A DNA stretch of 64,000 nt from Bispira polyomma (lineage: Eukaryota): assembly GCA_965649765.1 (NCBI GenBank), contig OZ287761.1:24304001-24368000 (forward strand), written 5' to 3'. The notes under the pieces were generated by a model. That model saw only the letters and a program-made list of their open reading frames with translations. It made no database searches and had not been told where the DNA came from. Both the position numbers and the translations under genes were made by a program. Positions 4,847-46,466 of the stretch are shown here, in pieces; positions within the stretch are counted from its first letter, which is position 1; the number at the start of each line of letters is the position of its first letter.

Positions 4847-5073
4847 ATCGAAGAATTAAAGAACCTGACATTGATGTTATATATTGTGAACTAGTCACCT
4901 GTACTGACTACAGAATGCGGACTGTAGAATACTGTACTGCCATAGTAATTTGAATTTAGTTAGACACTTTTAGCCACTAGGCCACCACTGTCAAGTAGGC
5001 AAGTGTGCTTTTATATCAATTAAAATACATCTGTACGTTATAGGAAACTAATATGTCAAAATGAACAAATTAA

Positions 5074-5262
5074 CCCTTTTGACCCTGAGAGAAGACTATC
5101 GCCGGGAACTAAAAAAAAATGTTCCATGTACATGTTACATATAGCATGGCACTAAAACATACACCTCAGAACACTTCTGGCATTCAATAACAGCCTCATA
5201 TATAGTTCTTAGGAGTAAGAATTGCCGCCAGATGCTAGCCGACAAACTAGGGAGGAAAAGGG
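5074..5262. mobile_element. piggyBac-like non-autonomous element (related decayed copies at ~970-1207 and ~4131-4418)
   Basis: TTAA|CCCTTTT...AAAAGGG|TTAT ends. The internal CCGGGAACTAAAAA motif is shared with the ~970 copy. Confidence 0.5.
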
Positions 5263-7467
5263 TTATAATCGGTCTACTTGATATTCATGGAGCGATTCAT
5301 AGAATTTGATATGTATCAAAATGGAAGACTTTTGTTGAGCCGGGCATAAGATTTAAGTGGCGCCCCAAACTCAGAATATTATTCATTAGATGTTGATAGA
5401 GTCATATTATTTTACCAAGGTATGCTGTAAAAATATCAAGTCAAAAGCTAGACCCTGTCTCTATATTTTAATATTATCTATTTTACACTACATTTGGGGA
5501 CCTGTTTAGCCTGTATTCCAAATGTTTCAACATTTAAAAAAAATATATATATATATATACCAACCTAGAGTCACGCTGGTGCATACCTCCGCCAAGGTGC
5601 AGTAATGTCAAAATGGAATAACAATTTGCACACTTATTACTTTGTCAATATTACATTTTTTAAAAGAATTACCACCCACAAAGTTGCCAAGTTTTGAACC
5701 ATTCTGAGATTCTTTAGCCGCGGTCAAATAATTTCTTTAAAACAATCCAAGGATAGGATTAAAACAATTTTGAAATTGTTAGTTTTTCTTAGAATTTTCT
5801 TAGTCCAAGAACAAGTCTAAGAATAACTGTATTCTAAGAATAAGAATCTTTGCCAATACGGGCCCAGCCCTTCTTTAATGGTATAACAAAAGTTTCCCAC
5901 TCCTAAAATCACTCATTCAGTAGCACTGTAAGGCAAGATATATTTCAAAATTTTACACGCAAATTAATGTTTCAAAAATGTCGACCATGCTTTGCCCTTA
6001 TCTTGTTACCTTTCTAGGGATGATTTTTTTGTTTCTTTCAAAATATTATTATAAAACGATTTGGTTGAAGTTTACTTCAAGTCCATTGGAGTTAATATCA
6101 TTATTGCCCAAATTGTAAGTCAAAGGGCCAAATAAAAGTACACGTTTTCACAACTGGTGTTTAATGTTTACTAGGTTGGATCACAAGTGAAGATGGACAA
6201 CAAATTGGTCACTCGCTAAAATGACCAACAAATTGATCACACTATTGCTTTGTAGTGAGAAATGTTAAAAAAAAATGGTTAAGAAAACCCTGTGGTAAAA
6301 AACATTTTAAAACATGCTTATGCAGGAAAGTCTACTGTTAATATTCATGGCCATTTATGTAGAAAAAGAGAAGCAATAATTTGCATAGGTACTTAATTAC
6401 AAACAAGGACATTTAAAATAGCTAATGTGATTTATATGCAAATGCAGCAAATTATACAGTCGATCACTTTTTCGAAGTACACTAGTTTTGACAGTTGTAA
6501 GACATTTGGGTATCAAATTTAATTGATGTGTGTCCTGCAAATTATTCAAAAGAAGCCACTTTAGGAGTAACCACTGGCTTGAAATGTGTCACCCGTAAAA
6601 AAATATCACACATACTTTATCTAAGTTTTTTTTTTAAACACATGCGCAAATTTCCTGCATATATTTGAGCTATTGTATATTTCAGTTATAGGAACTATCT
6701 TGCTGTGGTTTATAAATGTTGTATATTGTTAAAAAAACCGGCACTCATTCAAATTATACATTGGTACTGTTACAAAAATTAGTACTAACTAGTGAATATT
6801 GCTGCAGCATTTTGTATACATTAGATCATCAGCAGCTTTAAATATATGTTTATAGTAGTGACCTTTTGTGAAGAGTGTGTACTTGCTTATAAGTGTGACC
6901 TTGAAAGGAGGAAAAGTCTCACTTTGTTTGGGATAAGTTTATTCAATTATTTTGGCTCTATATACACCTGTATATATAAAATTTATTAAAAATAGTCACT
7001 TAAAATAGATGCAACCTGAATTTTTATAAAACAATTAAAGAAAAAGGGGAGGGCTAGAGAATTGCTTGTTAAATCTTTTGCTTTAGCTGGAATATAATGA
7101 CCAACACATAATGGAAAAAGGCGGGAAACGCCTGTGTTATTTAGTGCATTGATTTATGTGATTGGGTGATAAAATATAAACAATTCGGGTGGTAAGCAAT
7201 ACCTTATTGCTATGTATTTGTGCACCTGAAGCCATGCATTTCTGTCTGCAGTCCCTTACACTCTACATCCTCAACACGCTTGGGAGAGCAAAGATCAAAG
7301 GTTTATAAAATAGAAAGATACATTTCAGCGTGTTCAAACAAACAGGGAAGAGCATCAATGCCAATTAAGGAATTGATTTAAAATGTGATATTTTAAACTT
7401 GTTTTTTAACAACATTTATTTAATAGAAGTTTGGAAACACTTCAGTTTGGATAACTGACGTTGAGAG

Positions 7468-8288
7468 ATGTTTCACGTCTTCAAAGAGTACTTCACCAAA
7501 CCGTGCCTGGCTGGGTTGATTTGTGGACTACTGGTTGTAATCCTAAGAGTGCGACAGCTATACGGTAACGTTATCTTGGACGCTTAAATATTTTTTATCA
7601 GTGGGCCTTTACACCAAGAAGAATATGGGGGTTGGCTGTTATATAAAGTGGGCTTTTTTTTGGTTAGATATTTTTACAGTATTTAGATATAAACCTCTGG
7701 TTGGGCTGTTGTTATGCAAGCATGTGCTTTGTTCATGTATAGTGGGTGTATTTACTGGTACTAGATGTTCTTTATATCACAAACGCAATGTATTCATCAA
7801 AGACCAGAGAGGTAAGTCAGTGATAAGGGGATCTCCTTCTAACCGTCTTACATCTCTTTTGTCTTTGATGAGCACGTTACAGTTTTGAAAGCATTATAGT
7901 CGACAGATTTGAGCCCAGTGCAAGGCTAACACACTTTGCACAGGAGACTGGAAAATTCCCCCAATGCCTGCAACTTTTGTATGTTTAGTATATAGATATA
8001 CATATATGTACCACACACACACTACCTTGGGTATTTAATAGGTAGTTAAAAATAGTTATGACTGTTCAATCGCCGGTCAATCAGTCATATTTTGCCCGAT
8101 TGATCCTAAAATCAATTATTGTATATAATTTGCTTGTTAAATCTTAATGTGGTAATTACACAGGTCGGAATTCTTGCCAGGCGCTGTTGGAATCTGGTCG
8201 GTACCGAGGCGATATGGTATGGCAGCCGGAAAACTGTTTAATGCACCTTTACACCACACAGTGAGTCTGAGTGTTTTAGTATATGTAA

Positions 8289-8340
<52 letters not shown>

Positions 8341-11300
8341 CTTATTGACATGGCAGTCATACAGAGGAAAAAGAAAAAAAAAACAGGACAATAGTAGCAT
8401 ACAATAACCAAAGCGACCGAGACAATATATGTATAATTTCTACACAAAACATGAGAGTTAATTGTATTGTACATTTTTTACGCGCCTTATTGATGCTAGA
8501 CATCTCCCAAGGCGCAACATCAGAATCAATCAGCCAATAGAAAAATCAATAAATAATAGCCAGGTCATAAGGATGGATGCGTCAGCGCCCAGGGAGAGCA
8601 CTACGAAGGATAGGCAAGCCTGAAGAGATATGTTTGTAGCTTTTTCTGAAATCCAGAAACTGTATACTACAAGTATATGCATTTAGAAGATACAATTCAA
8701 TGTAAAAAAGACAGGACAAATTTTTAAAGAAAATTTAAAAACAAGCCAAGTTTCTCTTCAAATACTGCTATTCTACCTTGATTAGTGCATATGCTCTATT
8801 CTCCTACAGAAATGTTCATTTTTAAGATAGCTGAAAATTGTGAAAAATACAAGTCTTTGCTTTTTGTTTTGTTTTCGATTTGCTAGTGAAATATTTTCCC
8901 ATCAAGATATCACAATTGGCAATATAATAATATTTACGATTTAAGTTAAGTATACCCGAGTATAAGATAAGTGTTTAGTATATTTTATTATGGTTTTATT
9001 ACCCCTTTGGTATTACGTCACAACTGAGTCCTCCAGCAACTCCACTGATGCATAATTATACAGCGGCAGAGATTACTATGGCCGTAATACATGATCCGCA
9101 TGGTCTACTGCTTAGGGTGTTGATCTGAGGATCAGAAGTTCCTGTGTTCCACTCCGGGCACCAACCGCTAGTTTCAATGGGTGGAATATCATCATTGTGC
9201 AAGATGTGAACACACATTTGCCAAGTGGCTCGGATGGCACCCTTTAAAATGGTGGTAGTCCTCTGTTACCGAGTACTATCTCCAGTGACAGATTAAAGAC
9301 CCTTGGGGACGTCAATAAATGGCGTCATTCTCAAGCTCCCATGCCCATAGTAGCTGCCCATTAGGACCTAAGGATCTTTAATCTGCCACTGGAGATAGTA
9401 CTTAGTGAATGAGGACAGCCATTTTAAGTGGTCATCCGAGACACAAGGCAAACTTGTGTTCACCTCTTGTGCTGCCCAAAAAAATGCTATCTTACCAAAT
9501 GAAACTAGCGGTTGGTACCAGGAATAGAATCAAGGACCTGCTGATCATCAGACGAACACCCTAAGCACAGTATGGCATACCAAACTAGACCCAGTTTTCT
9601 ATCCTCGACGATGCTTTTATTTACTGATGTATCGCTCGTATAAGGACAGAGTGTCTTACTATAGAAAATCATTGTAAATTTCTAACGGCAACAAAAACGT
9701 AAGAAATTACACCCTAAAATAAGGAATCGGCTAGTAAAAAATAAATGGAATTAAAGATAAATGGTTATATTTTGTATAACAACCTTTATTGAATGCCGAT
9801 CATCAATATGTTATTTTTTATGAGATTTTTGAAAGGTTTCTGTAAATTTATCCTCCATGTTCGCTAGCGAGAACCTGTTGGCGCATGCGCACACCATTTC
9901 TTTCTGTGGGATTCCCTGGGGTTTTGGAAATAATTCTATCTACGTAAGTAAAAAAACAATCAATACAAATGTCCTTGACATTATATGATGGCATCAGCAA
10001 AACTAAAATGGTGGACATAATACCGGAAATAGACAAATTGACTAATACATATATACCTCGTGATGTTTTCTAAATAAAAATGATGAACGGCTAATAACCT
10101 CTGTTAAATAAATAATTTCAGATATTTAAAACAATTAAATTATGAGTGTATATATGCCGTTACACATTCACAACGATTTGCTATAGTAAACAACTCTGTC
10201 GCCAACGGCCACACCATCAGAAAAAAAAGGCCATTTCAGCGACAGCCAACTCGGTGTAATACCAAATGTGTTGGGTTATATTTGTTACTTTTTTTAAAAA
10301 GTATGTTTGCATTGACGATATGTGCCCATGTGCCCATGATGCACAGAAAGTAGCAGTATATCTTACTACACACCATAATGTTCTCATGCATTACAAATAC
10401 GCACATTCTACATTTTCCACAATTCCACTTTGATAGTTTTTTTCCATCTGTTTACCACGTCCTACTGTACAAAACACACACACATACATACATATTAAAC
10501 ATATGAGAGATTCCTTATTATCACGCTATAGTAATCATTGTTTACCTTTTTGGGGTTCTTTCCTTAGAGACACCCAGACATGCTTCAAGATGCTTTCCAC
10601 AGTACAGCACGACGTCAACAACGGGTACCGCGTAACGTTTATAGGGGATTCCCGCATACGTCAGCAGTACCGCAAACTGAGGTACTGGCTGACGGGACGA
10701 GATGAGCCAATGCCTTTCTCCGATCGACACAGGGATACTCAGTTCCGGCACGACGTCACGGGTACCGTGTTAGTAAGTACACGTGCACTCGACTAGACAT
10801 GAGGTGTGTGTTGTGGTATTATATATTATATGGAGTCAGACCACTATTAATTTTGTTATATAGTATCTTATAGCATTTTGTGCTATACTAAAGTCCGGTG
10901 AAGAGCTGGCCCTACAAACCATATATCAAATTAAACACCAATCTTAGTTCAGACCTGTTTGCATTTATACTGAAAAGTCAGGCTATTGTTTCTTTTAGAT
11001 ATCTTGGAAAGTGTAGAACAAGGTGATTTCCTGTCAATACCAAGATGGCTAAATACTACAAAAAGGCCCTTAAACAAATAGCTTCTGAATACTTATCTTT
11101 GTGAATTACCTTTCGGAATGCATTTGAAATCATTCAGTAGCCATTTCCCTACAATATCTGTGAATATACACAGTTGGAACTGTTTACTACTGTTACGAAC
11201 TTGAGTTGCAACCCTATCAATTTCTTTCAGTTCTACCTTAATTACTCTGAAACCAGGAAGTTGTAAATGGTAAAATCACTCCATATGTCTACTCTTGTGT

Positions 11301-16462: not shown

Positions 16463-16629
16463 CAGTCTACTTAAGATGTGAGGTTTAAAGATCAGTCCAG
16501 AGATATTTGTAAAAGTCAGTAATAAGATTCTGTTTGAGATTTTATTTTATATACATGTTAGTCTTATTAACAGATAAACAATTTGTAAAATAATAGTTAA
16601 AATTTTTAAGTTGAATAAATTTTAAGCCC
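16463..16629 (-). repeat. B2 terminal repeat of copy 2
   Basis: Direct repeat of 17981-18147. Confidence 0.85.
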
Positions 16630-17980
16630 TATTACGAGCACCAACAACAATGGGAATAACCCAAGAATAACATAGGACTAGCCATAAGCAAATAATAATT
16701 TAATTATACATATAAGGACTAGCCAATATGAAACATTACTTTGAAATAATACTAGTACAACTCTCAGTTAAAACGGTAAGTAAACCCTTATTCGTTTCAA
16801 GCCTCAACAAGTATACCTGCATATCTAAAAGTTTACAATTAAAATGTTGTGTTCAATAATTCTATCATAAAGGTTTGCAAAAAGTACATATCATAAGACC
16901 ATAAATTAGCCATATACAGTGTTTTTCTTCTACTTATGAACTAACATTGTGTAAACACAATGTCCACTTACAGTACTTTTCCCAATAATTCTGTCATAAA
17001 CGACTGCACAAAGTATACATCATATGACCATAAACCAGCCATATACAGTGTTTTCCTTCTATCTATGAACTAACATTATGTAAACACAATGTCCATTTAC
17101 AGTACACTTCCTATAACACTGAATGACATTGAATGGTTTCCAGCATTGCTAACATATATAATTCTCATCCCATTGGGTGAGTTAATATTGTTTCAAGTTT
17201 ACAGTAAATTTAAACATTTCTCTTTGATAGCCACATCTATACATAGTCAGTATTTATCATGTCAGAGGGTCGGGTTGAGATTCAGAACCTGTGGCCTGTG
17301 GCACCAACCACCTAGCAGAGAAACGATCCTGTCGGTCATACCTCTTCCCTGGAGATGCATTATATGACCCAGGGGTGGATAATTAATTTATTATGAGAAC
17401 AATAAGACAGTTTCCGCATTAGAGCGTCTGGTTAAGTTAGGAAACAGAGGACTGTCGCACCAACCGCCTAGCAAATAGGGGATTCCATCATTCATACCTC
17501 AACCCTGGGGATGGATTGTATGTCCCAGGGGTGGAATATGGAATGGAATCCTCCCTCCACACGTCCAAAGGTTCGAATCTGCCGTCTGCTCTGATGCTAA
17601 AACTCATTAGAAGCAATATGTCAAGCAATTTAAAAGCAACCTTACTCATGATCAATCTGCTGATCTGTCTCTTATGCACTTAAACGCTCCAATTGCTGAA
17701 AATTAGTCTAGCAATGAGCTGTGGTGAGGGGAGGTGGTGGGTTGAAAATAATTTTTAACTTGTTTGCTCTTTGACATTGAAGCTTCAAATGAAAAGATTC
17801 AAAATGGAGTTAATAAAAAGGAAGCAAAAACAGCAAGTGTGTGGGCTCTTATTTGTAGTTAAGCTGATACACCAATTTTTGGTACACCTAGGTGTAAAAT
17901 AATGTGTTTAAGGTTTGTAGAATATATGGGGTTTAAGGTGTGGACTGAACTATCAGTCCCCAACAGGGGCCTGCTGTGCA

Positions 17981-18147
17981 CAGTCCACTTAAGATGTGAG
18001 GTTTACAGATCAGTCCAGAGATATTTGTAAAAGTCAGTAATAAGATTCTGTTTGAGATTTTATTTTATATACATGTTAGTCTTATTTACAGATAAACAAT
18101 TTGTAAAATAATGGTTAAAATTTCTGAGTTGAATAAATTTTAAGCCC
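17981..18147 (-). repeat. B1 repeat of copy 2
   Basis: Immediately follows the YR stop (minus strand); direct repeat of 16463-16629. Confidence 0.85.
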
Positions 18148-18567
18148 CAATCCCAACTAAAAAAAAGCGGGAATGTTGATGTCACTGCTAGCATAGCATG
18201 ACAAGTCAGTGGCAAAAATTCCAAACTTTACTGTAAACCCTCTCTTAAAATTGTTTACTTGGCTACCCCAATTAAACATCAGCACACTTAGGCTAAGCGA
18301 CCAATTACCTTCCTTCATAGCATAGCTCTTCCCGCCTGTTCTTACAAATTTACCATTATTAACTTGCAAGTCAAAGAAGCAACATACACATTTTTCTCAG
18401 CCCAAAGCGGCCATATTGGATTTTTAGTGTGTTTTGGAAGAATACTTGGTTATTTTATATGTTCTGGCTTATATTACACTTTGTTTTTACGTGTTTTTAG
18501 TGTTTTATTACTCAAGTCACATTATAGCTCCATTCTTGGAAGCTTATACTTGGACCTTACCAGTAAA

Positions 18568-19866
18568 ATGGGCAGAGGAAAGAAGAAGCAACTTGCCGTA
18601 AATATGGCTATGTGTTCTAAGTGTGACATCTCTCATCCCCGACCGGTCGGGACTAGATGCAACAGAGTATCCACTCTGCCCGAACTAGAACTTCCTCAAG
18701 GACAAGATCTGGGAGCGGCTAGTAATTTGGACAGCGATTGTGTGAGTAATTTCTCTGATAAAGTTACTTCTGACACATTCTACCGTGATATACATATCAG
18801 ACAGCAAGCCATGATGCAAACGTTGCTCTCAACTGTAGCTAAACTTCAAGAGGACGTTTCTGGCCTCAAGTCCCGTTGCCCTGATACCCCAGCTCCTCAG
18901 CTATCCACAGCAGCGGCTTCCGTCGCGACTCGTCCTACAACTACCACTCAGCTTCACGTACCAGTGCATAGTACACGCCTAGACCAGGCTTCTAGAGCCA
19001 CTGCTCAAGGCCCCCTCAGTGTACCCGGGTATGACGCACATAGAGATCTTTCTCAGCTTACTCACTCACCTTACGCTCAATCTCCTGTATCAGGTCAGAC
19101 ACAAGGTTTACAGAGTACTGACAACACACAGCAGGCCTTCCATGACGGCATTCTACCCACGCCCGATGTCCTCAAGCAGTCCTCTATGATCCAGAATGAG
19201 GTTTCACTCCGTCTTGCTCGTTACGAGGCCTGGGCAGCCGACGAAAGCCTGCAAGGTAAGCTAGCCACCAAGAAGAAGTCTGGGCGTTACAACATATCGG
19301 ATGTGTGCGTTTCCGACCCGATGAAACGGTGGCCCAACGAGGCCTGTCTCTCTGGCATTAATAAGAAACGGGTCTCCTTTGACGATTTGACTATACCCCA
19401 ATTCGCTGCCGGGCAGATTCAAAACATTTTAGAGGTCCAAAATCCAACCATCTCCAGGGCTATGCTTACTCAACTAGCTGACACTCTCAGGGACGCCTCG
19501 AACATTTCTTGGCAGATAGCGCGAGGCGCATATGCATGCAACATGCATGATGTGGAAGAGGGTCGCCTCAGTTGGCTTAACGAGACCAAGTGGACCCTCA
19601 ACAGGCTATCTTATTCTCAAGCTCTAGTCACCAGCAACGCTCCCACGAATTCTACTCTTTCTGCGTCCACTAAACAAGAAATTCCGTGTAGACATTATCA
19701 GAAGGGGCAATGCCAGCATCAGAGAGACCACGAGGGCACCAATGTGTTGTTTAAACATATATGTGCCAATTGTTTCCGGATCAGTAAAAAGTCTAACCCC
19801 CATCCAGAAACGAAATGTTTTAAACTACATGGTCGTCCGGCACCAACACCTACACCGACTCAATAG
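18568..19866 (+). CDS. gag: Gag-like ORF1 of copy 1
   Basis: ATG at 18568 (MGRGKKK). N-terminal CxxC..HxRPVGxxC motif (also in copy 3), a coiled-coil, and C-terminal CRHYQKGQC..H / HICANC..H..C zinc fingers. Confidence 0.88.
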   Translation: MGRGKKKQLAVNMAMCSKCDISHPRPVGTRCNRVSTLPELELPQGQDLGAASNLDSDCVSNFSDKVTSDTFYRDIHIRQQAMMQTLLSTVAKLQEDVSGLKSRCPDTPAPQLSTAAASVATRPTTTTQLHVPVHSTRLDQASRATAQGPLSVPGYDAHRDLSQLTHSPYAQSPVSGQTQGLQSTDNTQQAFHDGILPTPDVLKQSSMIQNEVSLRLARYEAWAADESLQGKLATKKKSGRYNISDVCVSDPMKRWPNEACLSGINKKRVSFDDLTIPQFAAGQIQNILEVQNPTISRAMLTQLADTLRDASNISWQIARGAYACNMHDVEEGRLSWLNETKWTLNRLSYSQALVTSNAPTNSTLSASTKQEIPCRHYQKGQCQHQRDHEGTNVLFKHICANCFRISKKSNPHPETKCFKLHGRPAPTPTPTQ

Positions 19867-19923
19867 TACCACGGACTGCCCACAGTCACCACCACCGACT
19901 GCCATCCAGATAGTGTATATAGT

Positions 19924-22508
19924 ATGAGTCAGAAGAGCAGTGTTAGTTATAGACATAGGTTTAAGACAAATTTTAAGTCAGACGATAATGAGAACCATAA
20001 TTTTTCTCCTAGCTTGAGTGATAACATTGAGTTTAACAGTACCGGACGTTTGCCTGTAGATAGCAGGATTAGTGCATCACAGGCACCAGTAAATTATGAT
20101 AATATTTATTCTGTCAGTAGGCATACTGAGAGAAAGTGTTTTAATGTAGACATTAACTCAGATGCTACAGTCTCTAACGTGTCGGGCAGCACATGTGGAG
20201 ACTATCGTTGGGACTTTAAAGCTTTTGATATGTATCTCAGTTGTAGTCTGGGTAATGGTTTATTTACAAATTTTTGTTACCTCGCATGTCGACAGGACGT
20301 ATCTCTTTCTGGCGTTTATGTGTGTAGTCTGGTACAAGGTAGCTGGCTATTCCAGCCCTCTTCTTGGTCATTACAACAAATTTGGCCAATAACGTATTAC
20401 AGCTCTGCATACATTCCTGTCTTGACCAGAATACCTGGTGCTACGGTCACTTCTCTTAACAGACTTCACAAAGGTAGTTCAAACAGAACTACTTCACATA
20501 CTCGTACCACTTTGGGTAGCACCATACATTACACAGACATCATAGATAACATATGCAAGCTTGACCAGCAGAAGCATGCTCAGGTAGAACCTGCTACAAA
20601 AAAGTTTCAGAAATTTTCAAACATTAAACACACTCTCAGCTCTAATACCACTGTCATACACACCCCATTTGCAGCCCTTGAGGACGTTATGACACAAAAA
20701 TTTCCATCACAATGCTCTCATATATTTACCAAGGACAACAACATACAAGAGGCCTATTCGGTCACTGAAAGTAAACCCTTTGGTTACATGCCTTACCATT
20801 ATAAAAAATTTTCCTTCGTGGGTCCTGTTAGACAAGAGGTCAACATGGACTCCTATCACAAACTTGTAGAGGTAGCCAACATTATCAAAGCCACTGGCGC
20901 CCCTAATTACCAGGTAGCACGTTTTCCACTTAAGAGTAATCTTAATGTAGCTAAGTGGAAAGAATATTTGGTTGACTACCCTGACAAAATCATTTTACAG
21001 TACGTGGAATTCGGATTTCCCCTTTCTTTAAGTGAGAGAGATCGCCTCCACGTCACAAATGTAAAAAATCATTATTCAGCCAAAGTCTTTCCTCAGGTAA
21101 TAGACAAATATTTCGTTACTGAGGTAAACAGAGGCACCATAATTGGCCCCATTAATGCTGATCTCCACCCTGACTTACATTGTTCTCCTTTGTTAACAGT
21201 CCCCAAGGACACCAATCAACGAAGATTAGTACTCAACCTTTCTCATCCAACAGGACAATCTGTTAATGACTGCACAGTCAAAACCAAATATGACCACGTT
21301 AATTTTAGCCTTAAACTTCCAACTATTGACCAAATCACTTCTCACATTTTGTCCATCGGTCTTAAGGCCACCTTAGCGAAAGTGGACATTTCTCACGCTT
21401 TTCGCAATATCAGAATTGACCCTTATGACTGCCTTAAACTTGGATATTTTTGGAAAGACAATTACTACATTGATCTTACTCTTAGTTTTGGCTTAACCCA
21501 CGGCACGGCGGCCTTTATGATGGCCTCAGATTGTGTCACTTATATTATGAAATTAAAAGGTTTTACAGTGTATAACTACATCGATGATTTTATACTCGTA
21601 CAGTCTGAAGATAAGGCCACCTTAGCTTACAACACCTTGCAAGAAACCCTTTCAGATCTAGGTCTTCCAGTCAATTCAAATAAATTAGTCCCTCCCAGTA
21701 AACGTGTCACCTGTATGGGCATCACTATTGATATCACCACTGAAACACTCAGTATTGACAAGGATAAACTGAATACCATATACGATACTTGTGTGCAGTT
21801 TCAATACTTAAGAAAGGTACGTAAACAAAAATATCAATCTTTACTAGGGAAATTGTTATATATACACAGATGTATTAAACCCGCGCGTATATTTATGAAC
21901 AGAATGCTTACTCTCCTTCGCCAATCTACCAGTAGTAATACAGTCGTCCTCAATACAGATTTCCATTTGGACTTAGCCTGGTTCCTAAAATTCCTCTTAC
22001 ATTTTAACGGAACTACCACTTATAACTACATTAACAAACCTCATGATGGCTTACTACAGGTGGACGCTTGCTTATCAGGCATTGGTGGTATATGGGATAA
22101 CAACGTGTTCAAAACTCCTCTACCTCTCTTCTAGACCCATACTTTATCAATCGTACACTTTGAAATGGTTAGCATTTTGATTGCCTTAAAACTGTGGAGT
22201 CACAGATGGAAAAACCAAAAACTTAAGGTTCAGTCAGACAACATGCTGTGGTTTCTGTGGTGCAGTCATCCAAGACTAAAGATAACTACTTAGGGCTATG
22301 CTTGAGAAACCTTTGGCACATTTGTGCCACAGAAAATATTGACCTTGTTATTAGCCACAGACCAGGTAAGGACAATATCATCGCTGACACACTTTCGCGT
22401 TGGTATGAACCTGATTCTTGTGATGACTACACTAGATCCTTTATCATTGATAGTTTTAATATGTTTGACATTCCTCTCGCTTTCTTTACATTACATAATT
22501 ATTTTTAA
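19924..22508 (+). pseudogene. pol: Reverse transcriptase-RNase H ORF of copy 1, disrupted in RNase H
   Basis: RT motifs KVDISHAF, LSFG and YIDD; RNase H VDAC...E...SDN...ADTLSR. In-frame TAG at 22132-22134 and a frameshift near 22245. Confidence 0.92.
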
Positions 22509-22514
22509 TTTCAG

Positions 22515-23497
22515 GCACCTCTCACTCAGCCAACTCACTCATCCAGGGTGCCCTATCAAGATTGCGTCAGACACACAGACCCAGAACCCAGAGACAATAT
22601 AACAGTCAATTCAGACTTTTCTTAGCCTTCACTGTGTATTACGACCTACAGCACACTTTTAGTTTCAATACCATATTGGCTTTCTTAGAGTTCCTTACTC
22701 AGTCAGGTATATCCCACAAAGTAATTGCAAATTATTTGTCCTCTTTAAGACACAATGCTAAATTACTCAATTTTAAACACACAGGCCTGTACGACCCTAG
22801 GTTACCCTTGTATATCAGATCTCTGGAACTCACCACCAAATACACTCCCAGAATCAAAGGAGTTTTTGACCTCCACCAATTATCCAGAATTTCACAGGCC
22901 TGCGACCTTCTCCACTTTCCTGACTTATACAGGACAGCCTTCCTTTTTGCCTTCTTTGGCTTCTTGAGAATCTCCAACCTTACTAATACTTCTGGCTCCC
23001 CCTTTGACCCTACAAGACACCTCACTAGGGCTGACATAGTTTTCGCCCCCCCAGGTATACACCTTATCCTTAAATGGAGTAAGACTAACCAGGGTAGGAA
23101 AAACCCAGATATCATTCAGCTACCCTCACTTACAAACCCCTGGTTGTGCCCAGTTAGAGCCTCTACCTCTTTGTTTGAGAAATACCCCCTACCCTCCATG
23201 GCCCCATTACTGGCCAATCCTTTAGATAAAGGCCTTTGCCTCTCAGATTCTAAGCTTAGATCTACACTTAAAAACATTCTCACTCATCTTAACATTCCTT
23301 TAGATGGCCATTCCTTTCATTGCTTCAGGCGTTCTGGAGCCTCTTTAGCCTTCAATGCAAATGTCAAACTTCAGGATATACAAAGACACGGGTGTTGGAA
23401 ATCCGATGCTGTTTGGTCTTATTTGCAGGCTACGTCCCATACAGCCTCCATCATACCATCTACTTTTGCCTCTATTGTCTCTACCACTACTTTTTAA
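22515..23497 (+). CDS. Tyrosine recombinase of copy 1 (no upstream ATG; frame opens at a splice acceptor)
   Basis: Catalytic R (FLRISN), K (WSKTNQ), HxxR (HCFRR), HGCW and Y (VWSYL). The frame is open from TTTCAG|22515. Confidence 0.93.
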
Positions 23498-24584
23498 CTT
23501 GGCTTTTGGCATTTTAAAATTTTACACAAATTTTACTTGTATAGTTGTACATAGAGACAGTAGATAGAAAATAAATATATCCCAAACAGCAACTGCTTTC
23601 CTCACCATCTATACTTACCTTTACCTATTCTTTGGTCAAGCTCCTTAAGTTATTAACACTAACTTCTATCACCCAATTTTAGCTACTGTTGATGTCACTG
23701 CTAGCATAGCATGACAAGTCAGTGGCAAAAATTCCACACTTTACTGTAAACCCTCTCTTAAAATTGTTTACTTGGCTACCCCAATTAAACATCAGCACAC
23801 TTAGGCTAAGCGACCAATTACCTTCCTTCATAGCATAGCTCTTCCCGCCTGTTCTTACAAATTTACCATTATTAACTTGCAAGTCAAAGAAGCAACATAC
23901 ACATTTTTCTCCCAACCCTCCGCCCTAAACCATTATACTTTCCTTGGCTTACCACTGCCGTCAACTCGAGCCTTTCTCTTTGTGGCCTCGACCCTCGGTC
24001 CGTGTGGTGCTGGTTCTCGGCTCGCACCTTCCCCCTGGTGTGGGCTATCAGGGAATTCAGCTCTGCAGCCGAGAACCTTCACTGCTAGGCGATTAGGTGC
24101 CATAGGACCGGGGTTCCATCCCCAGAGTGGCTTTGGTTGGAGGCGTTGGTCAGCCGACCCATTATATTATATTTTGCATGCTCACGTAGATTCTAGATAC
24201 ATTCACCTTCAGTAGATTTATTCTACTTTAGCACTTCTTAACTCAGTCATCCTGGGTATTATCACTTTTTTTTTTCTTCTTAAAAGATTTTAGTTTTTAC
24301 TTTGTTCAGTCATCCTGAACATTTTTTACTTTATGTTTTTTCTCTTTCCAGGGGCCATTTATGACCCCTCCTTTTCATTCTTGTTATTGTATGTAGCCAT
24401 ATTGGCATTTTAAAATTTTACACAAATTTTACTTGTATAGTTGTACATAGAGACAGTAGATAGAAAATAAATATATCCCAAACAGCAACTGCTTTCCTCA
24501 CCATCTATACTTACCTTTACCTATTCTTTGGTCAAGCTCCTTAAGTTATTAACACTAACTTCTATCACCCAATTTTAGCTACTG

Positions 24585-25517
24585 GTTGAGGCAAAGGTAT
24601 TAGGCAGCCTGGGAAGTCTTGTAAATAAGGCCAAACTGAGGAAGACATCTATAGCCCGTGGGCCATTATGTTCTGTAGGGATACATTATTGTTTAATTGC
24701 AAATGTGTCTCCAGATCTTCTGAAGGTGTAGAAGCCATGGGATAAATATTGAATGCCAATGTGAGTTAAAACTTTTTCTAGTGCTGTTCTGACATATGTT
24801 TCCACTACAGTGTGATGTGGGGTACCAGCGTCTGCAAAATGTGGTGCAGTAGGAGGTAGGGCTCTAGAAGCTAATAATTTTTGTAATGATAAAACAGGAC
24901 ATATAACCTTATTCTGAAGCTGTGGGATTTGTATAATGTGAGTATCTGTTCTATTCTGCAAAATTTTCCCCATTTTATAATAATGTGAGCCCCAGTGTGT
25001 CAAATAAAATATCTTATCTCAGTAAATGCCTGGTGCTGTCAAAAGAGGCCCTTGAGTGTGAAGCAATGTTGGACAGCCTTAGGAACGCAAAATAAGCAAA
25101 TAAGAAGATTGACCTGTACAATATAGGGTCATCTACTATGTCACATGCTAGTGAAATATGGCTTAATTGCGAAATTTCAAACAAACCCTTATGTCTTGGG
25201 CGAACTGTTGAGTTTATTGTGATACTCCTAATAAACGAGACTGAGTTATAAGGCTAGATCCCAATCAAGCTTTTTAGCCATAAATTTTAAAGATAAAATA
25301 TAGTTTGCCACTACAGCAGGAGATGTGTTGTTTTGAACCAAATATTTCAAGAACGCTAGTACAGAATGTACTGAGATAGTAGAAATTCCTGCAAATTGCT
25401 TAAAAGCAAGAAAAGTTTTGAATTGGTTACTGTAAGCAGCAGAGGTCTTTAGTCTTAAAGCGGTATCAATCATACTGCATGCTGAGCTCATAAAGTGTTG
25501 GCTGATGTTGGAAGAAC
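24585..25517 (-). pseudogene. YR gene of copy 2 (frameshifted)
   Basis: FLRLSN, ICPV, GFYTFRRSG, HG and VWPYLQ motifs spread over several frames. Confidence 0.88.
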
Positions 25518-28500
25518 CTGTAATTATATTAATAAATTGAGGTCAAAATATTGTAATGGAATTGTGTTTCAGTTGTAGTTATTGAATAGTTCATGCTGGG
25601 TGGAGTTTCAAAATACATTCTGGAAAGTGCATCTGCTGTGACATTCTTTTTTCCTGGAATATGTTTGACATGAATAGTGATATCATGTGTAGCTGAAATT
25701 AGCCATACATTTCTCAAGCAAAGTGCTAAAAAACTATCTTTTGTTTTCTGACTTTCAACAACCAGTACAACGGCCACGTTGTCACAGTGAACAACTAGTG
25801 TACTGTGTGCCCATTTCTTTGCCCAGATTCTTAAAGCTATCACTATGTCCAGCATCTCTAGATGCACAATGGTTAAATTTTGGTTGTACATTGTAATATG
25901 GAGTTGCATATACTTCCTTATTCCAGACGCCCCCTAAACCCAATAAGCAGGTGTCTAGATGTAATTCATCTATATGTGAAATATCTTCAGGACTAGTGTA
26001 AGTCATGCCATTGTAAGTGGGTAAAATTTTTTGAAACTATGCTATATCTCCCTGCATTTCAGTAGTGACTTTAAATTTGTTAATATTTTGGTTGTGCCTA
26101 AATGCAAATAATAGTTTGTTTATGAAAGGTCTTCCAGGTCGTACACATTTGTGAAAATATAACAATTTTCCTAATAATGATTGAAATTTTGTGCCTGAGA
26201 TGTGGCGTTTTTGGCTACGTTATAAGACCATAAGTAATATTTCCTCTATATTTTCTTGTTGTATGATGATGGTACCTGCTCTTATGTCAAAGTCTATACC
26301 TAAACATGTTAAATGTGTGGTTGGAGGGGTGAGCTTGTCTGCGTTTATAGGAAAACCTAGAGCTCGTAATAAATCACTTGAGATGTTAAAGCCCTCATTC
26401 GCTTTGTCTTTACTACATACGCAAATTTAAGCCCTATTTCCTCAAGTGTGATGCAATTGTGTCCGAATAACGCTGGAAAGCCGCACTTCGGTGTACCCAC
26501 CCAAATGCTATCGCAGGGTACACATACTGACCTTCAGCGAACTGTATACCCAATTTCAAAGCGTACACTGGATCCACTCGTAGGTTACGGAATGCACATA
26601 ACACATGATATCTCCATCATAGAAATAAAAATCATTACGAGCTTGTTGTATGTCGTTGACATTTAACTGGCTTACATCTTCAATATGAACCACCTGCTAG
26701 ACTTCCTTTGGTACATCAATTACTGCAATATATTTATCAGTAATTATTAACTCTCCCTGAGGTAAGTCAGTTACAGGTTCATATTTCATCTCGTCATCCA
26801 GGCTGTGGTGATACATGTAATGAAAACCTCTAATTTGGCTGCCAAGGCAATCAAGATACACTGTGGGAGCCCAAATGTGCCATTTTTTGCAAACCTGTTT
26901 TCAATTTGTAACATTAACAGTTATTTCTATAGACTTACTTTGCTGACCCATTTTACCATGATCACCACAGCCTATTGATCCATTTCTCTCCCCATGAGTT
27001 TCAGGAACAAAACTGTCAGTCTAGCTGACTTCATTATGTTGTACCTGCAAGTACTGTATGGACCATTATGAAAGTTAAATTCAGAATAACCTTGCAACCT
27101 TGGGTACATTCCTGTAACAAGATAAATCCTGTAACAAGATAAACTTTTTAAAATTTAAATTCTCTACTATTCTCAAAATTATTATTAAGGAAGTTTCACT
27201 GGTTGTTGAAATATTAGTAGCTTGATTTATCCTGATTTGCTTGACTGTCTAATTGCTTACTATTCGCCTTATATCACTTGAACTCCGGATGATTGGAATC
27301 CTTCCCTGGAGTACGGCTACAATGCCAACAGATATGTCTATAATTACTGTGGTCAGTCTTGTGACTGCATTTACCATTATTGTACAATTTGGAAATAATT
27401 TTAGAATCATTGTTAATGTTCAAACTACTAGAATTACCATTATTCAGCATAGCCATCTGGGAGGCACTTAACCTGTTAAATCCCCACTGGGTGTCATTCT
27501 GACAGGACAGCCTTCCCTCTTCAATCTCGTGCATACTGGGGCCCAGGCTGTCATGCGACTGGCCAGGGGAGAGACGAAGCATCCCTAAGCGTGGGGATTA
27601 CTTGTTGAATCATGTCCCTCATCTCGTTGGCATCTGGGACTAAAAGCGAGTTTGCAAGTTGCCCTGCGGCCGATTGTGACATGGATAACTCATCGAAAGC
27701 CGGTTTCTTCTTGGAAGAACCTCCTACCCAGCCTTCGTTAGGCCAACGCAATCTGGGATCTGCTGTGGTCACATCAGTGCTGTTAAACCTGCCTGACTTA
27801 TGTTCAAGTGATGTCCTACCTTGTGATAGGTCTCTTTGTGCCATAGCAGTGTACTGAGCCAACTGTCTGGTGACTTCAGCCTGCACGTGAGGCAGTGATC
27901 GTAATGCGCCCAAGTTGGGCACAATGCCGTTCCGTTGAAATTCAGTCTCTGTGTGAGTAGGGTGTGTAGGAGCAGAGATGTTGCGGCGAACGTTCTGCAT
28001 ATAAGTCGGAACTTCTCCAGTCGGGTGTAGTGGCACGTTTGCAGCCATGGCGTTGGCTGGTAAAGGAGCAGATGTGGCTATGGGAGGTGGTAACGCGGAT
28101 GAGGTCTGTCCATACAGGCCGGCGTGAGCCATCGTCAGCCCCAACAGGTGGCCATGTGAATGGTGAATAGAGTTTTAAAATCATGATAATATTGACAGAC
28201 AATTTGGCACTTAGCCAAAGGATTAAATTTTAGTCTATGAAATGATTATATATATAGTCGGAAAAGCCCCTCATTCAATGGTATCGTTGTTTACATGTTA
28301 GTGTTGATTGTCAGTATGGGGCAAAACAAAACACAAGTAGAGCTAATCATATGTCTTATTTATGATTGTTATGGTACAACTGGAGCAAAAAATATGATCA
28401 CAATTAATTAAGCCAGATGAAATCTGTCCAGAAAATATATGTCTGTATATTACATTCAAAGTTTGGGCATATGTAAATGTAGTGTGAGAAACTTGTGACA

Positions 28501-29019
28501 CGTGAATCAGAGTAAACACAGACTAAGTCCACACATGTACAGTAGTTGTGTTTGTTGTATATCTAAGTAGAACAAATAGTACCGACAAATATCAACCTAG
28601 GATTAGAAAGGAATTGGCGTAATCACATTTTGGTTTTTATATATAAAAAAGGAAGTTTTTTGTTATTGACAAGTGTAGGTAAACACTTACTTTCACTCTT
28701 TTTCTCTGGAGTATACCTGACCAAAACCAACAGTGGAGGTGTATATGAATCATGAGTTTAATCTTCTATAACAGTAGTCAGTTTCCAGTATTTTGGACCC
28801 AGTAGTGCATTAAAATGTGCTAAAAGTTATACACACTGTTAGGCCAATATATGACTGTGTTTCAGTCAACGTGGCCACCCCTGAGTATTGTGCAAAGTGA
28901 TATAGACATTGGAATGAAATGCATTGGCGTATCTCTTTGGGCATTTATTAAATACAAATCTACACTAACATCTATTGTTAACATGGTTAGTACATTTTAC
29001 ATAATTCATTACATCACAA

Positions 29020-29350
29020 CCGTGACCTTGCAAATTTAAGGTCACCACATATATAACCATTATACAGTTAACCTTTACCTTAAGCAAAGAAGAGGGTGAC
29101 TTAAGGTTACCTTAAATTAAATTTACAATGATGAATTTTTAAGACATTTACTTTTAGGTTTGAAGAGGGGTGACTTAGGGTCACCTTAAAATAGTGTTAA
29201 GCAGATGACTTAAGGTCATCCTAAATTATATATCTGATGATTTTTACAAACAGCCACTTGTTAAGGTGACCTTAAACATTACCTTCACTTTAAGATTAGC
29301 TTACAAGTTTATGTTTAGGTTACCTTAATGTGTAACCTTTTAAGGTAAAG
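29020..29350. repeat. Quasi-palindromic repeat (AAGGTGACCTTAA / TTAAGGTCACC motifs), MITE-like
   Basis: About 10 copies in both orientations. It abuts and truncates the 3' end of copy 3. Confidence 0.65.
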
Positions 29351-29369
29351 GGGAAGTTCTATTTTAAAC

Positions 29370-32300
29370 TATAAGATAGAAACTAGCTCACAAAATACTA
29401 AAACTATGTACATATTACAATGCCCAAACGCCATAGAAATTTTAGTATAATATTATTTTTTGTAGGGACTTAGCTACTGTTGAAAAGGCATTAGGAGTTG
29501 AATGCAGATAGGCCCATACTGCTGATGATCGCCAACCACCATGAGCCATGATGGATTGCAACTCCACGTTGTCGTCAAACGCTAGAGTTGCCTCAGAACG
29601 TCTAAATGCATGAAAACCGAAGGACTATGGGTGCAAGCCTAAAGAGACTATAATTTCTCTTAATACTTGCCGCACTTTAAAAGCTGTGAGGGGCTAATTG
29701 CCTGTTGACTTTATACATAAAAACTGGAGTTTCTTTTACATTTTTGTTTATTTTAAACATTACCTTCAGTGCTGCAACGGGGCATAACACTGATGATCCT
29801 AAAGCAGGCAACTGCACCACATGAAACTGATTATATTTTTGTAAATTCTTAGCCCACCTGAGGACAATGTGCACCCCAGGGGGGCCCCAAATAAAATCTT
29901 CACACGTTAAGTGTCTTTGAGGGTTAAAGAGGGAAGTACTAGTGGGGACTAAATTTGATAATCTGAAAAATCCAAAGAAAGCAGTTGCAAATAGTGCTTT
30001 TTAAACGTATGCATGTGGAAAAGCAGAGGCCTGGTGAAGGATGGATTTTAGAATAGGAATGGTTATGATGCCCTTCCACCTGGGTGTGTAAGCGATAGAT
30101 AACGTAAGAGATTTGAAAAATAGCTTTAGCTGTGCATGAGCAAAGACATGCACAGGAAATTTCCACAAGTGGAAATAGTACTTGACTGCTGATAAGTAGT
30201 TTTTAATTGAGGGGGGTTTGAGCCCCTGTTGTGTAAGATATTCGCAGAATTGAAGAATAAACTGCAGGGACACCAGCTCCACAGCTCCAATGAATACAGC
30301 AAAAGCAAAAAAAATCTTATACAATTATTGTAGGCCTGCCGCGTCTTGAGAGTCATCGCTGACTCTAGCCTAGCGTTGGCTGTTTGAGATAGGAGAATTT
30401 GAATTGATGTACCTGAAATTAAAAATCAGTATTTAATGTGAAATCGCCTTGGCTGACTTTCCACCACTTTTTCTGCATAACTTGCTCATGGACTCTGCTG
30501 TTTTTGTGCCCTGGAATAAACATGCGCGACAAGTAGTCAGCTTGTACATTTTTAATGCCAGCGATATGGACCACGTCCAATTTTATGTTATTTCTAGCAC
30601 TTTCCAACCAGATAGATCTTGCCATAATACCAAGACCTGTGTCATAGAATATACTAGAATTTAACCCTGCAACAACAGCCCCATTGTCACACCACAGCTT
30701 TACTGTACAATACCAAGACCTGTGTCATAGAATATACTAGAATTTAACCCTGCAACAACAGCCCCATTGTCACACCACAGCTTTACTGTACAATTTTTGA
30801 AACATTTACCCCACACACGTAGTGCCACCAAAATATTCCACATCTCAAAATGGACAATTCCGAATGACTCGGGTTTGTGTTCTGGTAAAGCTGCGGCATA
30901 GACATTGTTGGCCCACATGGCCCCAATACCAACCAGAGAGGCATCTACATATAATTCCAACACTGGCTCTTCCTTGAGAAGCATCTCAACCACTCCGTTA
31001 AAATCACCCAGAAATTTGTTAAACCATTCCAAATGAGCCTTAAACCCTCTAGTTAGTTTAATACATTTACTAGGATATGTTTCCCTGAGCAACTTTAGCA
31101 TTCTGTTTAGAAACAATCTAGCGGGAGCGACACATCGATGTATGTACAAAAGTTTCCCCAGAATTGATTGTAAGTCTCTTCTATTGCAGTTTTGTTTTGC
31201 TCGCCATTGCTTACACATTTCCTTTATTTGGTTTAATTTCTCATCCGGTATTTTAAGGGTACCCTTCTTAGCATTGACTAGTATTCCTATGCATATGACC
31301 TCTTCTGCCGACGGAAATACTTTTTTGGGATTTATCGGTAAACCAAGATGCTCTATCAATTTGTACAACTCCTCAAATGAGTTTTGGGCCCTACTACTTT
31401 CTTCTACGGCAACTAGATCGTCGATGTAGTTCCAAATTTTGTAGTTTTTACTCTTCATTAGCCTGCGGATACTATCGGTTACTCGCTCACAAACCACCAT
31501 TTGACAATTTTGCTGTAGGGCCAATTTTGTTAATTTGGTCAACCAACATGTCTATGGTGGGTAAAGTTAAAACAAAATCTTGTCCATCATATCTGCCCTC
31601 TGTTACCATGCTGTTAACTGACATAGCGTCATGCGGCCAAGATAGGTCCACTATAAGTCTTCTAGAATTGTCATCCTTAGGCCTAGTCATGACAGGGGAG
31701 TAGTGCAAAGACGTATATGGCTTTTCATTAAAAGGACCTGCTATCACCTTATGTAACCTTTCCGTAACAAAGTACTGGTCAACACTATCTGGGAACTTAA
31801 CTGCACTGTCATGATTTTTAACGTCGTCATTAAATTTAAAGTGTTCATGCATCATGTCCAGATGGAAGCCAAACTCTAAGTACTCGGGAAGTAACTTATC
31901 TTCATCCCCCATTAATACCTGACGCCATGCAGCTATATTGAGTTCAGAACGGACAGGTGCCCGAGCACCCAAGTAATTAGGACCCCCCCAGTCACCCACC
32001 ACTTTGTGTGCCTCAAGAGCCCATTGCTCTAGCGTATTAAAGTCAATTGGATTGGTATACGTGGGTGTACAACCCACCAAGTTAAATATACACTGAAAGC
32101 CAAAGTTGTCACTTGACTTGCCATGTAGTCGGTCTGTACAACTCTTACCAATTCCCTTAATTGATTGACACTCCACTGCGACTACAGAGGGCGGGAGAAA
32201 GGGTTTTTTGAACTCTGGTGTCACTCTGTGAACTAGCCTCTTCAAGTGAGGTGATTAGGGGTTCGCCCTGACAATTGACTGACTGACTTCGAGGGGGAGA

Positions 32301-34460
32301 AACCCTGCTTACATTGTTCACTATGTTTGTTATATCTGTCAACCTTGCGCCCCATACCTCAGGAGGGGGGGAAATGACTGCCACCCTTCTACTTTTGACA
32401 CGACTCGCTAACAGGTCCTTGTTAGGACACTCGTTGAACTGTTTTTGTTTACTACTACTGCTAACTTGTTTACCACTTTCTTTTTGTAAACTTTGTTTGT
32501 TAGAGTTTTGCAAAGGACTAATTGGTTTGTTAGAATTTTTTGGCGGGAATCCGCCTATACAATTTCTGGCCATTTTCCCGCTCTTTTCCAATGGCGGGAA
32601 CCCTACTTCATATGTGCACTTTTTACCATCACCAGTTCTACTATCTAATACACACTTTTCGCTTGCCCTATGGACAAACTTTTTACAATTTCCACTACAC
32701 ATATTATACTTTGGAATCATTTTTACATTTTTATTTACATTTGAAACACTTTTTTCACCCTTCTTATAACCCACTTGGTCATAGAGTCAGGTACTACAAC
32801 TATCATGACTTTTACAGTTTCTGCTCTCATGTGTGCTATAACTTTTCACCCCAGGTTCCCTAACTTCACACGTTTTTGAGCCCCTACCAAAGCCACTGTT
32901 CCAAAACACTCTAGTTTTTACTGACTGTCAGTTTTGATTAGTCCTACTGAAATCCCGTGTTTGAGCAGTAGTTTTCCCACAATCTTTCTCCCTATGTAAT
33001 TGGATTTTCTTATTTTGGTTAAAACATTTCGAACAGGCGTGTTTTAATATCATGGAGCCAAAGATGTGATCATCTGACTGGCTACACGTCCCTTTGTTGT
33101 ATGCACTACACATGAGCACAGAATTTTTGGGTTTCCCTTTTTGTGCATAACTGCTACCCTGGGCTGAGTCATTAACAGAAGTGTCTTTAAGAGTACGTTG
33201 TGTTAAACGGGCCCTGAGGTCGTGTATTTGAGAAAGGTTGCTCCAACTAGCTTTTCCCTTTTCAATTTCTAGCAAAATTTGGCAATGCGCGCTTTTGACT
33301 ATAAACCACAAGGTTTCTAGACCGTCCCTCATTAATTGCATTCCATATTGCAACATATTATCTCGTACTTTTGCATCCTTTTCCTCAAAAACACAATCCA
33401 AGTAACCCTGGAAAAACATTAAAGGGGTGAGGTCTTGGAAAGACGGTTGCTTTTTACCTGTTGCATTGAAGCAAAGCTCATGGGACCAATCAATTATTTG
33501 TTTCACTGAATGTTCATTAGTACGTTGAGGCCCTGATTTAAGTTTCTTACCGCTATCAGGTGACGTGTAGAACTGGGATCTGTTCCTCTGTAAACACTTA
33601 TCCACTTGTGCCTGGATCGTCTCATTTGACTTCAGAAATCTCTGACTGGACAGAATCACTGCATCTGTATCCAGATCGTCGTAGTTCGTCACATACTCCG
33701 GATCCAAGGCGAGGTCACCTCTTTTACCCTGCCTTGTCTCAGATTGAGACACGTACAGTTCATCACATTGAGCCCGGTAACCTTGCCGTGCTAGATAACT
33801 ATGTGACACATCCTGTGCTAACATTTTAGTCTGTTTTAAAGTCCCCTGCTCTTTTTTAACCTCACTCATGTCATTCTCCAGCTGATTTTACTGAATCCAG
33901 AATAATGTTCAGTTTGTCTCCCACTGGTACCGGCTCCCCGGCTGGGGTGTCTGTCCTGCTACTCTGCTTCTCCGTTGTACTGGTCACTTCCCATGTAGCT
34001 CGCTGCACTTGACGTCGGCCCCTAGTGGCTGGAGTGCTGGCAACAGTAATATCCAGTTTACACTGTCTCCCCACAGGTCGTGAATGAACTATGTTGCATT
34101 GTTTGCAGTATCCCGTTTTTGCTGCCATTATGTATATCTATAACTGTCAATAATTGTCTATGAATCTGTAGAAATATAAAAATGGATTCTGCAACTTATG
34201 CTTGCAAGTGAGAGGAACATATTTACAAATTTTGTGGATTTCAAAATTCACAAGATAGTGAAGAGAGAAACATGCTATGCGTGAATATAATTAGTATACG
34301 TCCACTCGCAATCAGGCTAGCAAGCCATTGTAAGCATAAATAGCAGATTCCAAGAAACAGCTCTCTCCAGTAACACTTTAATGACACAGGAGACCCTGAA
34401 ACATGAGGTTTTATACTCCCATTTCGTACCGCAGAGCACAAACCATTTTGGGCGATCACA
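29370..34460 (-). mobile_element. Ngaro/PAT-type YR retrotransposon copy 3 (decayed)
   Basis: gag 34128-32928 (frameshift at ~33870; CKQC..HSRPVGRQC and CCCH finger). RT-RH 32774-30419 (YIDD, VDAS; frameshifts; 83-bp tandem duplication 30626-30791). YR 30412-29442 (FFRLSN, LCPV, GFHAFRRS, HGGW). The 5' boundary is approximate. Confidence 0.9.
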
Positions 34461-34650
34461 AAATATAGGTTAAGGGGTGAAAGGGTTACATGATCTTTAA
34501 GGTGTGGCTGCTCTGACTGACACGAAGTGCTGCACAGCTTCTACACAATATATGCATGTGCACTATTTTATTTTTACTCTGTATAGTGAATTCAAAGGAT
34601 ATATAACTGACAAGAGATACACATGAAAATTGTGCTTTAGGATTAAAACC

Positions 34651-45886: not shown

Positions 45887-46466
45887 GATGTACTTTGGCA
45901 GTTGTTTGAAAATTGACAAAATCACTAAAATGTGTAAATTGTAACATTCAAGATCGAAAAAAATTAACTGGCGGTTTCAAAGAAAACATGTCCATGGCAC
46001 GGAGTCAGTTTTGAAGTGGGTTTTCCTCAAGTTTTGAAGTAAGTTTCCGCTATGTTTTTTATATTATTTTTTAATCTGGTTTGTATACTACATAAGTGTT
46101 TACTGTGTAAACAATATCAGTGTGCCTACACACCTTTTGTGCTTAAGTATAATTCAGTATAATGCTTCCCTTTCAAGAAAGTAGTGCAAGCATTATGTCA
46201 TTGGAGTTACCCCATGAAGACATATATTTGTAAATCTGTCAGGTTTTATAAACTAATAGAAGTTGGGTACTGATATTTAGGTTTAATCTGGAATACTTTT
46301 CCCAGTTTGTATATTTTATGTGGACACTCGCATGAAATAAACAGATTTGGTGTGAATGCACACAGGATTCATGAAATAAGCTGTATTCTTCTGAACTGTT
46401 CCAACATCGTGATATTTCAATTGGTTTTCTAATCAGAAGCTACACGAGCAAGGGATTCGGGCAATT

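Follow-up and report, generated by a model that had tools for sequence, protein, structure and literature searches.

The window analysed here, 64,000 nt of the Bispira polyomma genome (GenBank assembly GCA_965649765.1, contig OZ287761.1, positions 24,304,001 to 24,368,000 of the forward strand), contains three diverged retrotransposons of the Ngaro type, which we call copies 1, 2, and 3. In copy 1, the genes for Gag, for a reverse transcriptase (RT) with RNase H, and for a tyrosine recombinase (YR) follow one another on one strand, and a predicted intron that begins inside gag and ends just behind pol would join the N-terminal part of Gag to the recombinase (Table 1). The open reading frames (ORFs) lie among split direct repeats in the order A1-ORFs-B1-A2-B2, with the internal repeats downstream of YR. 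The terminal repeats are 99.5–100% identical, indicating that the copy 1 family moved recently. The pol gene of copy 1 itself is disrupted by a premature stop (22132–22134) and by a frameshift in the RNase H part; near-identical relatives of this copy have an unbroken frame of 880 codons.

By its structure, the element is a Ngaro-type retrotransposon. A tyrosine recombinase is present in place of a DDE integrase, and four unbroken pol frames matched RT and RNase H families only, ending ~35 residues past the RNase H match. There is no methyltransferase domain, unlike in DIRS1-like and PAT-like elements, and no methyltransferase-bearing outgroup elements were found with PF05869. The RT is 24–27% identical to that of fish elements that we take to be Ngaro, in a comparison that held no named reference Ngaro, DIRS1, PAT, or VIPER element. 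The same A1-gag-RT/RNase H-YR-B1-A2-B2 layout, the lack of a methyltransferase, and a YR start adjoining the RNase H end are described for Ngaro, in the order DIRS of tyrosine-recombinase retrotransposons, in the accessible portions of PMC8547959, PMC4157794, and PMC13465315.

Table 1. Features of the three Ngaro-type copies, in window coordinates
Feature	Position	Strand	Remarks
Copy 1 repeat A1 (split direct repeat)	18174..18398	+	225 nt, 99.6-100% identity to A2
Copy 1 gag	18568..19866	+	432 aa; CxxC-type zinc motif, coiled coil, linker, long helix, helical core, C-terminal Cys/His finger
Copy 1 predicted exon 1, coding part	18568..19255	+	229 codons + 1 nt; ATG at 18568
Copy 1 predicted 5' splice site	19255..19261	+	Phase 1, within a Gly codon
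Copy 1 predicted intron	19256..22514	+	3259 nt; Gag core and whole pol; deduced from its two sites
Copy 1 gag stop codon	19864..19866	+	In frame with pol; predicted readthrough site
Copy 1 pol (linker, RT, RNase H)	19867..22508	+	Without methyltransferase; RNase H stop 22506-22508
Copy 1 predicted 3' splice site	22490..22515	+	T-rich, G-poor run, CAG; phase 1
Copy 1 predicted exon 2, complete Cre-like YR	22515..23497	+	326 codons; first helix 3 residues past acceptor
Copy 1 repeat B1	23506..23688	+	
Copy 1 repeat A2	23687..23911	+	
Copy 1 repeat B2, 3' end of element	24402..24584	+	
Copy 2	16463..28174	-	Decayed, 5'-truncated; YR end interrupted by copy 1; B repeats 17981-18147 and 16463-16629
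Copy 2 predicted donor (27820/27819)	27814..27820	-	Phase 1
Copy 2 predicted acceptor (25518/25517)	25517..25540	-	Phase 1
Copy 3	28862..34548	-	Decayed; ~95% identical to L051 and L052
Copy 3 predicted donor (33551/33550)	33545..33551	-	Phase 1
Copy 3 predicted acceptor (30413/30412)	30412..30435	-	Phase 1

The initial annotation had proposed that each copy carries a 5' splice site (donor) at an equivalent position in gag and a 3' splice site (acceptor) directly behind the RNase H stop codon. All six sites were located in the sequence, and when the frames were recomputed, donor and acceptor were in phase 1 and the joined product was in frame with YR in every case. The acceptor sits 9–14 nt past the RNase H stop in all three copies. 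The YR frame of copy 1 (22499–23497) opens five codons 5' of the acceptor and, as had been claimed, offers no upstream ATG in those codons. Nucleotide 22515 is the second base of a codon in this frame, and the first Met of YR is residue 228, past the catalytic residues Arg-151 and Lys-189. Splicing would join 688 nt of exon 1 to 983 nt of exon 2, which makes 557 codons including the stop, in agreement with the 556 amino acids calculated earlier. The surrounding DNA had been described as not alignable by eye; in the 200 nt around the sites, ungapped identity between copies is 30–47%.

A donor in gag and an acceptor before a YR without its own start are kept in nearly every family that we examined. 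The 1.04-Gb genome was searched with the Gag core of each copy, giving 150–151 matches each among 4911–8723 candidates, and 20 loci per copy were hand-chosen across identity bands. The resulting 60 loci (L031–L090) make up 16 families when grouped at 80% Gag identity, and pairs share as little as 19%. Donors were located via a Gly-Lys-like dipeptide, so the donor test bears on synonymous positions only. The donor was GT in 59 of the 60 loci and GC in one; the junction codon was GGT in 58 loci, and the next codon was AAG, again in 58. All 16 family representatives have GGT-AAG, versus 10% expected from the codon use of the same gag genes (31% × 33%), an excess with a binomial p of about 2e-16, although the families are not fully independent. 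Across the same families, codon choice varies freely in the neighbouring KSG motif, at its Lys and its Gly, and at the Gly-Lys of RT. GC replaces GT at the donor in L062 and L130, which may be decay or a GC-AG intron.

The acceptor was kept in 53 of the 60 loci as a phase-1 YAG (44 CAG and 9 TAG) located 56–62 nt from a conserved YR Arg. In the profile of the 16 families, the AG and the T residues at −6 and −5 are invariant, and the residue encoded through the acceptor may be Ser, Val, Pro, or Thr. G is depleted, at 7% against a background of 20%, and a branch-like YTRAY motif occurs in 12 of the 16 families (0–10 in 17 control windows). The features of a U2-type intron are present: a GT-purine donor, an AG acceptor, a T-rich and G-poor run, a branch-like motif, and equal phase. 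Both the donor codon test and the acceptor profile thus bear out the earlier claim that the sites are conserved beyond chance. Most families lack a usable YR start codon; the position of the first Met spans 9 to 228 and is not conserved.

We also scored a hold-out set of 20 loci, out of 109 found with a distant fish YR, that were taken without regard to gag. A phase-1 YAG was present at the expected YR start in 18 of them, and the remaining two are damaged there, with a TAG acceptor nearby. Where a KS motif could be recognised (16 loci), a phase-1 GT-purine lay 11–32 nt 5' of it in 15 and a GC in the other one. The residue after the donor Gly varies in this set (Lys, Thr, Met, Gly, or Ser).

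The predicted junction falls between protein domains. Across 20 copies from the three clades, exon 1 ends at one alignment column, and in one of these copies it is one residue longer. All three clades share a predicted coiled coil and a long helix whose end coincides exactly with the donor. In the Gag model, this site is at the end of a predicted helix of 24 residues (22–45), followed by a low-confidence flexible linker and then the helical core. From residue 3 on, the YR model folds as a complete Cre-like enzyme (best match E 5e-8, TM 0.67) with the conserved residues Arg-151, Lys-189, His-268-x-x-Arg-271, Trp-294, and Tyr-302. Because the donor lies at a helix end and YR is whole from residue 3, the splice would respect domain borders on both sides. 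The initial annotation had given the fusion both a Gag zinc motif and a coiled coil. The coiled coil holds for all three clades; the N-terminal zinc motif is found in the copy 1 and copy 3 clades and is absent from the copy 2 clade, and it cannot therefore be the essential part. The Gag core, which the splice would remove, is predicted with confidence (pLDDT above 90) to be a helical domain at 19258–19800; Foldseek gave no match at E <= 0.001 among solved structures, including retroviral capsids (best VIA Z 4.9).

Joined forms of the kind predicted are found in other organisms. A search for longer YR relatives gave a fish protein of 574 amino acids, and its junction, used as a query, returned 104 hits; in 58 of them, the Gag motif QIL(A/S/T/P) runs straight into the YR start. 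In an unspliced Gag of the same species (P0227), Gly follows this motif, as a G/GT donor predicts. The 58 joined hits come from 19 named cypriniform (fish) species, and many are RefSeq XP_ models called proline-rich or mucin-like; joined Gag-YR models are already in databases, unnamed as such. One of the joined forms, P0137, is a 483-aa Logan protein on a read-assembled contig of 1954 nt, too short for the intron. The remaining 46 hits comprise partial sequences, sequences that begin within the pyrimidine run, joins through different donors or acceptors, and Gag on its own. Fish models P0142, P0156, and P0165 join the gag donor to sites in RT and may be artefacts or spliced Gag(N)-Pol.

A metagenome scan gave 20 loci, 12 of them with a YR start that was scored (L095 was left out), and a pyrimidine run with a phase-1 YAG was present in 11 of the 12. 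Two loci, L091 and L093, have G/GTAAT at the equivalent position in gag. L104 and L105 match L110 at 96–99% from the YR start onward. Unspliced L110 has RNase H and then a CAG acceptor before YR; in L104 and L105, an unrelated ATG-started leader is joined in phase 1 to YR at the base of this same acceptor. The L104 leader had no match in this genome, in the collected loci, or in the Atlas. Upstream of the joined leader-YR frame, L104 carries an SGNH/GDSL hydrolase ORF (928–1530; PF13472, E 4e-12); hydrolase ORFs of Ngaro elements are known in Xenopus. In the YR tree, which has long branches and no outgroup, the fish sequences, the L094–L098 group, and the invertebrate clade form three deep branches.

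Together, the codon-level conservation across families and the joined sequences in two distant YR lineages support the spliced fusion that had been proposed. Judging from these sequences, these Ngaro-type elements very probably remove the Gag core and the entire pol by splicing, and the resulting subgenomic mRNA would encode a fusion of Gag(N) with the tyrosine recombinase. A single promoter in repeat A1 would give the full-length RNA. Unspliced, this RNA would serve as the genome and as the mRNA for Gag and, through readthrough of the single gag stop, for Gag-Pol; spliced, it would encode the 556-aa fusion. Through the retained Gag coiled coil and helix, YR could then assemble together with Gag and accompany the cDNA that it has to integrate. 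This co-assembly is the most speculative step, and it might equally prove right or wrong.

The arrangement of gag and pol bears on the readthrough step. Both genes lie in one frame with a single stop between them, which reads TAG-G in the clades of copies 1 and 2 and TGA-C in that of copy 3 (TGA at 32930–32928 in copy 3 itself). Among 49 copies with a full-length gag end, the frame behind the gag stop is open for at least 250 codons in 20, versus 1 of 98 other frames, and the stop contexts are TAG-G in 28 and TGA-C in 13; copy 1's own subfamily has TAG-T. TAG-G and TGA-C are readthrough-prone contexts. A single in-frame gag stop is also present in L091, L093, L095, and L097. The RNA behind the gag stop gave just 3 pairs with no covariation and nothing resembling a pseudoknot. 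Pol is probably made by readthrough. In L070 (oriented 2054–2100), no in-frame stop separates the two genes; pol is in the −1 frame and shares a 43-nt overlap with the gag end. This family possibly switched from readthrough to frameshifting while keeping its splice sites.

Several observations weigh against the spliced fusion. For B. polyomma, the splice is predicted from sites in DNA, and the joined forms belong to other lineages. The fish proteins are gene models, which can be copied between species by homology; P0137 is the sole read-assembled joined fish form and may be DNA; and the leader of L104 and L105 has no established Gag identity, nor was its donor seen. YRs of fish and of this genome are homologous, whereas fish exon 1 had no detectable homology to exon 1 here, and the two donors appear analogous in position, not established as one ancestral site. 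Of the 60 loci, six could not be scored at the YR 5' end and one no longer has the AG; in the hold-out set, the gag motif was missing from four loci, and several loci were near-copies of one another. A Met occurs within the first 19 YR residues in 6 of the 16 family representatives. 

None of the 15 listed joints (of 28) in three sequencing runs matched the predicted junction, and the contigs look genomic. No spliced DNA copies were found in this genome with three junction patterns, which covered the copy 1 and copy 2 clades and had no positive control, or among the 30 scored of 1235 candidates in a whole-element DNA search. By length and N terminus, there was no invertebrate-clade fusion protein among the 120 listed of 648 near-length hits, and none among 142 exon-1 profile hits; the protein hits of this clade appear to be mostly intron-blind gene calls on DNA.

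The published explanation for the start-less YR is different. In the available text of PMC3783388 and PMC9210276, the Ngaro YR is treated as a separate third ORF, frameshifted or overlapping, and PMC13003380, in its accessible part, cites Poulter and Butler 2015 for a YR in the −1 frame, overlapping RT/RNase H, that is probably a product of frameshifting, an answer that was proposed but not shown. A programmed −1 ribosomal frameshift at the RNase H end would yield YR within a Gag-Pol-YR or Pol-YR polyprotein, and in copy 1 and in 12 of the 16 families the YR and RNase H frames do overlap for a short stretch, YR being in the −1 frame; four database proteins (P0121–P0124) also join RT and YR in one frame. 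We nevertheless consider this route improbable. The −1 geometry arises because the stop codon sits 9 nt before the acceptor end, the frame is 0 or +1 in the other 4 families, and in other organisms the RNase H stop precedes the acceptor by 27–137 nt, with all three frames represented. Of 25 overlaps, 4 contain a canonical slippery heptamer, its place differing between them, and no slip site is conserved. Frameshifting, moreover, leaves both the invariant YAG and the invariant gag donor codons unexplained, and at most we would grant it the part of a minor additional route.

To a similar degree, we doubt that the acceptor is real but joined to another donor, in the 5' leader or in RNase H, or that YR comes from its own ATG or an internal promoter, with the gag site serving otherwise. 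In fish models P0184, P0196, and P0197, this acceptor is indeed paired with a donor in RNase H, and the gag-to-RT models, the early Met residues, and the L104 leader mentioned above can be read in this way. The first Met is not conserved, however, both splice sites are in phase 1 in every clade, and the gag donor is the one used in the 58 joined fish hits. We regard it as scarcely credible that protein constraint or chance accounts for the conserved motifs and that no splicing takes place. Gly-Lys is a conserved Gag dipeptide from which our donor calling began, and an AT-rich genome favours T runs; yet synonymous positions are fixed at the donor only, the hold-out loci retain GT-purine with differing residues after Gly, the acceptor is located past the RNase H stop and not within pol, and joined contigs exist.

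The spliced Gag(N)-YR fusion can be compared with known systems. Introns have been noted in some fungal DIRS elements. Retroviruses express env, their 3' gene, from a spliced RNA that drops pol, and gammaretroviral Pol is made by UAG readthrough; in contrast to env, the 3' gene here is a recombinase, and the spliced product would retain ~230 Gag residues. A close parallel is the SD' RNA of murine leukemia virus (MLV), in which a donor inside gag and a downstream acceptor place Gag N-terminal domains in frame with integrase sequence, giving a packaged protein, P50 (PMC10496198, accessible text). According to the same text, P50 is accessory and holds only integrase's final 116 amino acids, the working MLV integrase coming from Gag-Pol, whereas the splice here would be the route to the whole integrating enzyme. 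In Ty1/Copia elements of Arabidopsis, conserved splicing sets protein ratios but yields Gag alone with premature termination, as far as the available part of PMC5580714 describes it; the splice proposed here would remove the Gag core and pol and deliver a catalytic protein.

The fusion differs from the published frameshift proposal and, as the initial annotation supposed, we found no earlier description in this group: neither a gag splice nor gag-pol readthrough is described for Ngaro or DIRS in the accessible text of PMC7192593, PMC8547959, PMC9341512, PMC3783388, PMC9210276, PMC12477816, PMC13465315, PMC4157794, PMC6681497, PMC13003380, and PMC5633606, with subscription papers, Repbase notes, and supplements outside this coverage. 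A conserved splice would replace frameshifting as the answer for the start-less YR, and it can be tested with existing zebrafish RNA-seq. The native recombinase would be redefined as a Gag fusion, which bears on the biochemistry of these Cre-like enzymes, and many fish RefSeq "proline-rich" proteins would be transposon products. ORF1 is reported to affect Ngaro insertion preference in the part of PMC8547959 open to us, and a Gag-YR fusion could offer a physical explanation for this effect. A broader proposition, which we hold to be evenly balanced, is that in all Ngaro elements, from marine invertebrates to fish, the integrating enzyme comes neither from a free third ORF nor from frameshifting in any case, but is a chimera of Gag(N) and recombinase made by splicing. 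In this retrovirus-like plan, Gag, readthrough Gag-Pol, and spliced Gag-YR would all come from one transcript, the recombinase taking the position of env; the Gag part would load the enzyme into the particle and steer where it integrates, and hundreds of "proline-rich" or "mucin-like" fish models would be such chimeras.

Other features of the window were recorded. The three copies form a nested cluster (16463–34548) in which copy 1 is inserted within the 3' end of copy 2. An empty copy 1 site (joints 18163 to 24583) is present in contigs from the sequencing runs, and the flanks of other copy 1 relatives are unrelated. The RNase H part of copy 3 contains a perfect 83-nt tandem duplication (30626–30791). 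Farther downstream, 57500–63400 holds C2H2 zinc fingers (58337–58972), a weak poxvirus F12L-like match, a type B DNA polymerase-like ORF (61031–62056), and a NADAR ORF (62347–63336), and this cluster is likely a decayed Polinton/Maverick-like element. A single-exon ankyrin-repeat ORF lies at 46413–47498, and a separate RT fragment lies at 40541–40984.

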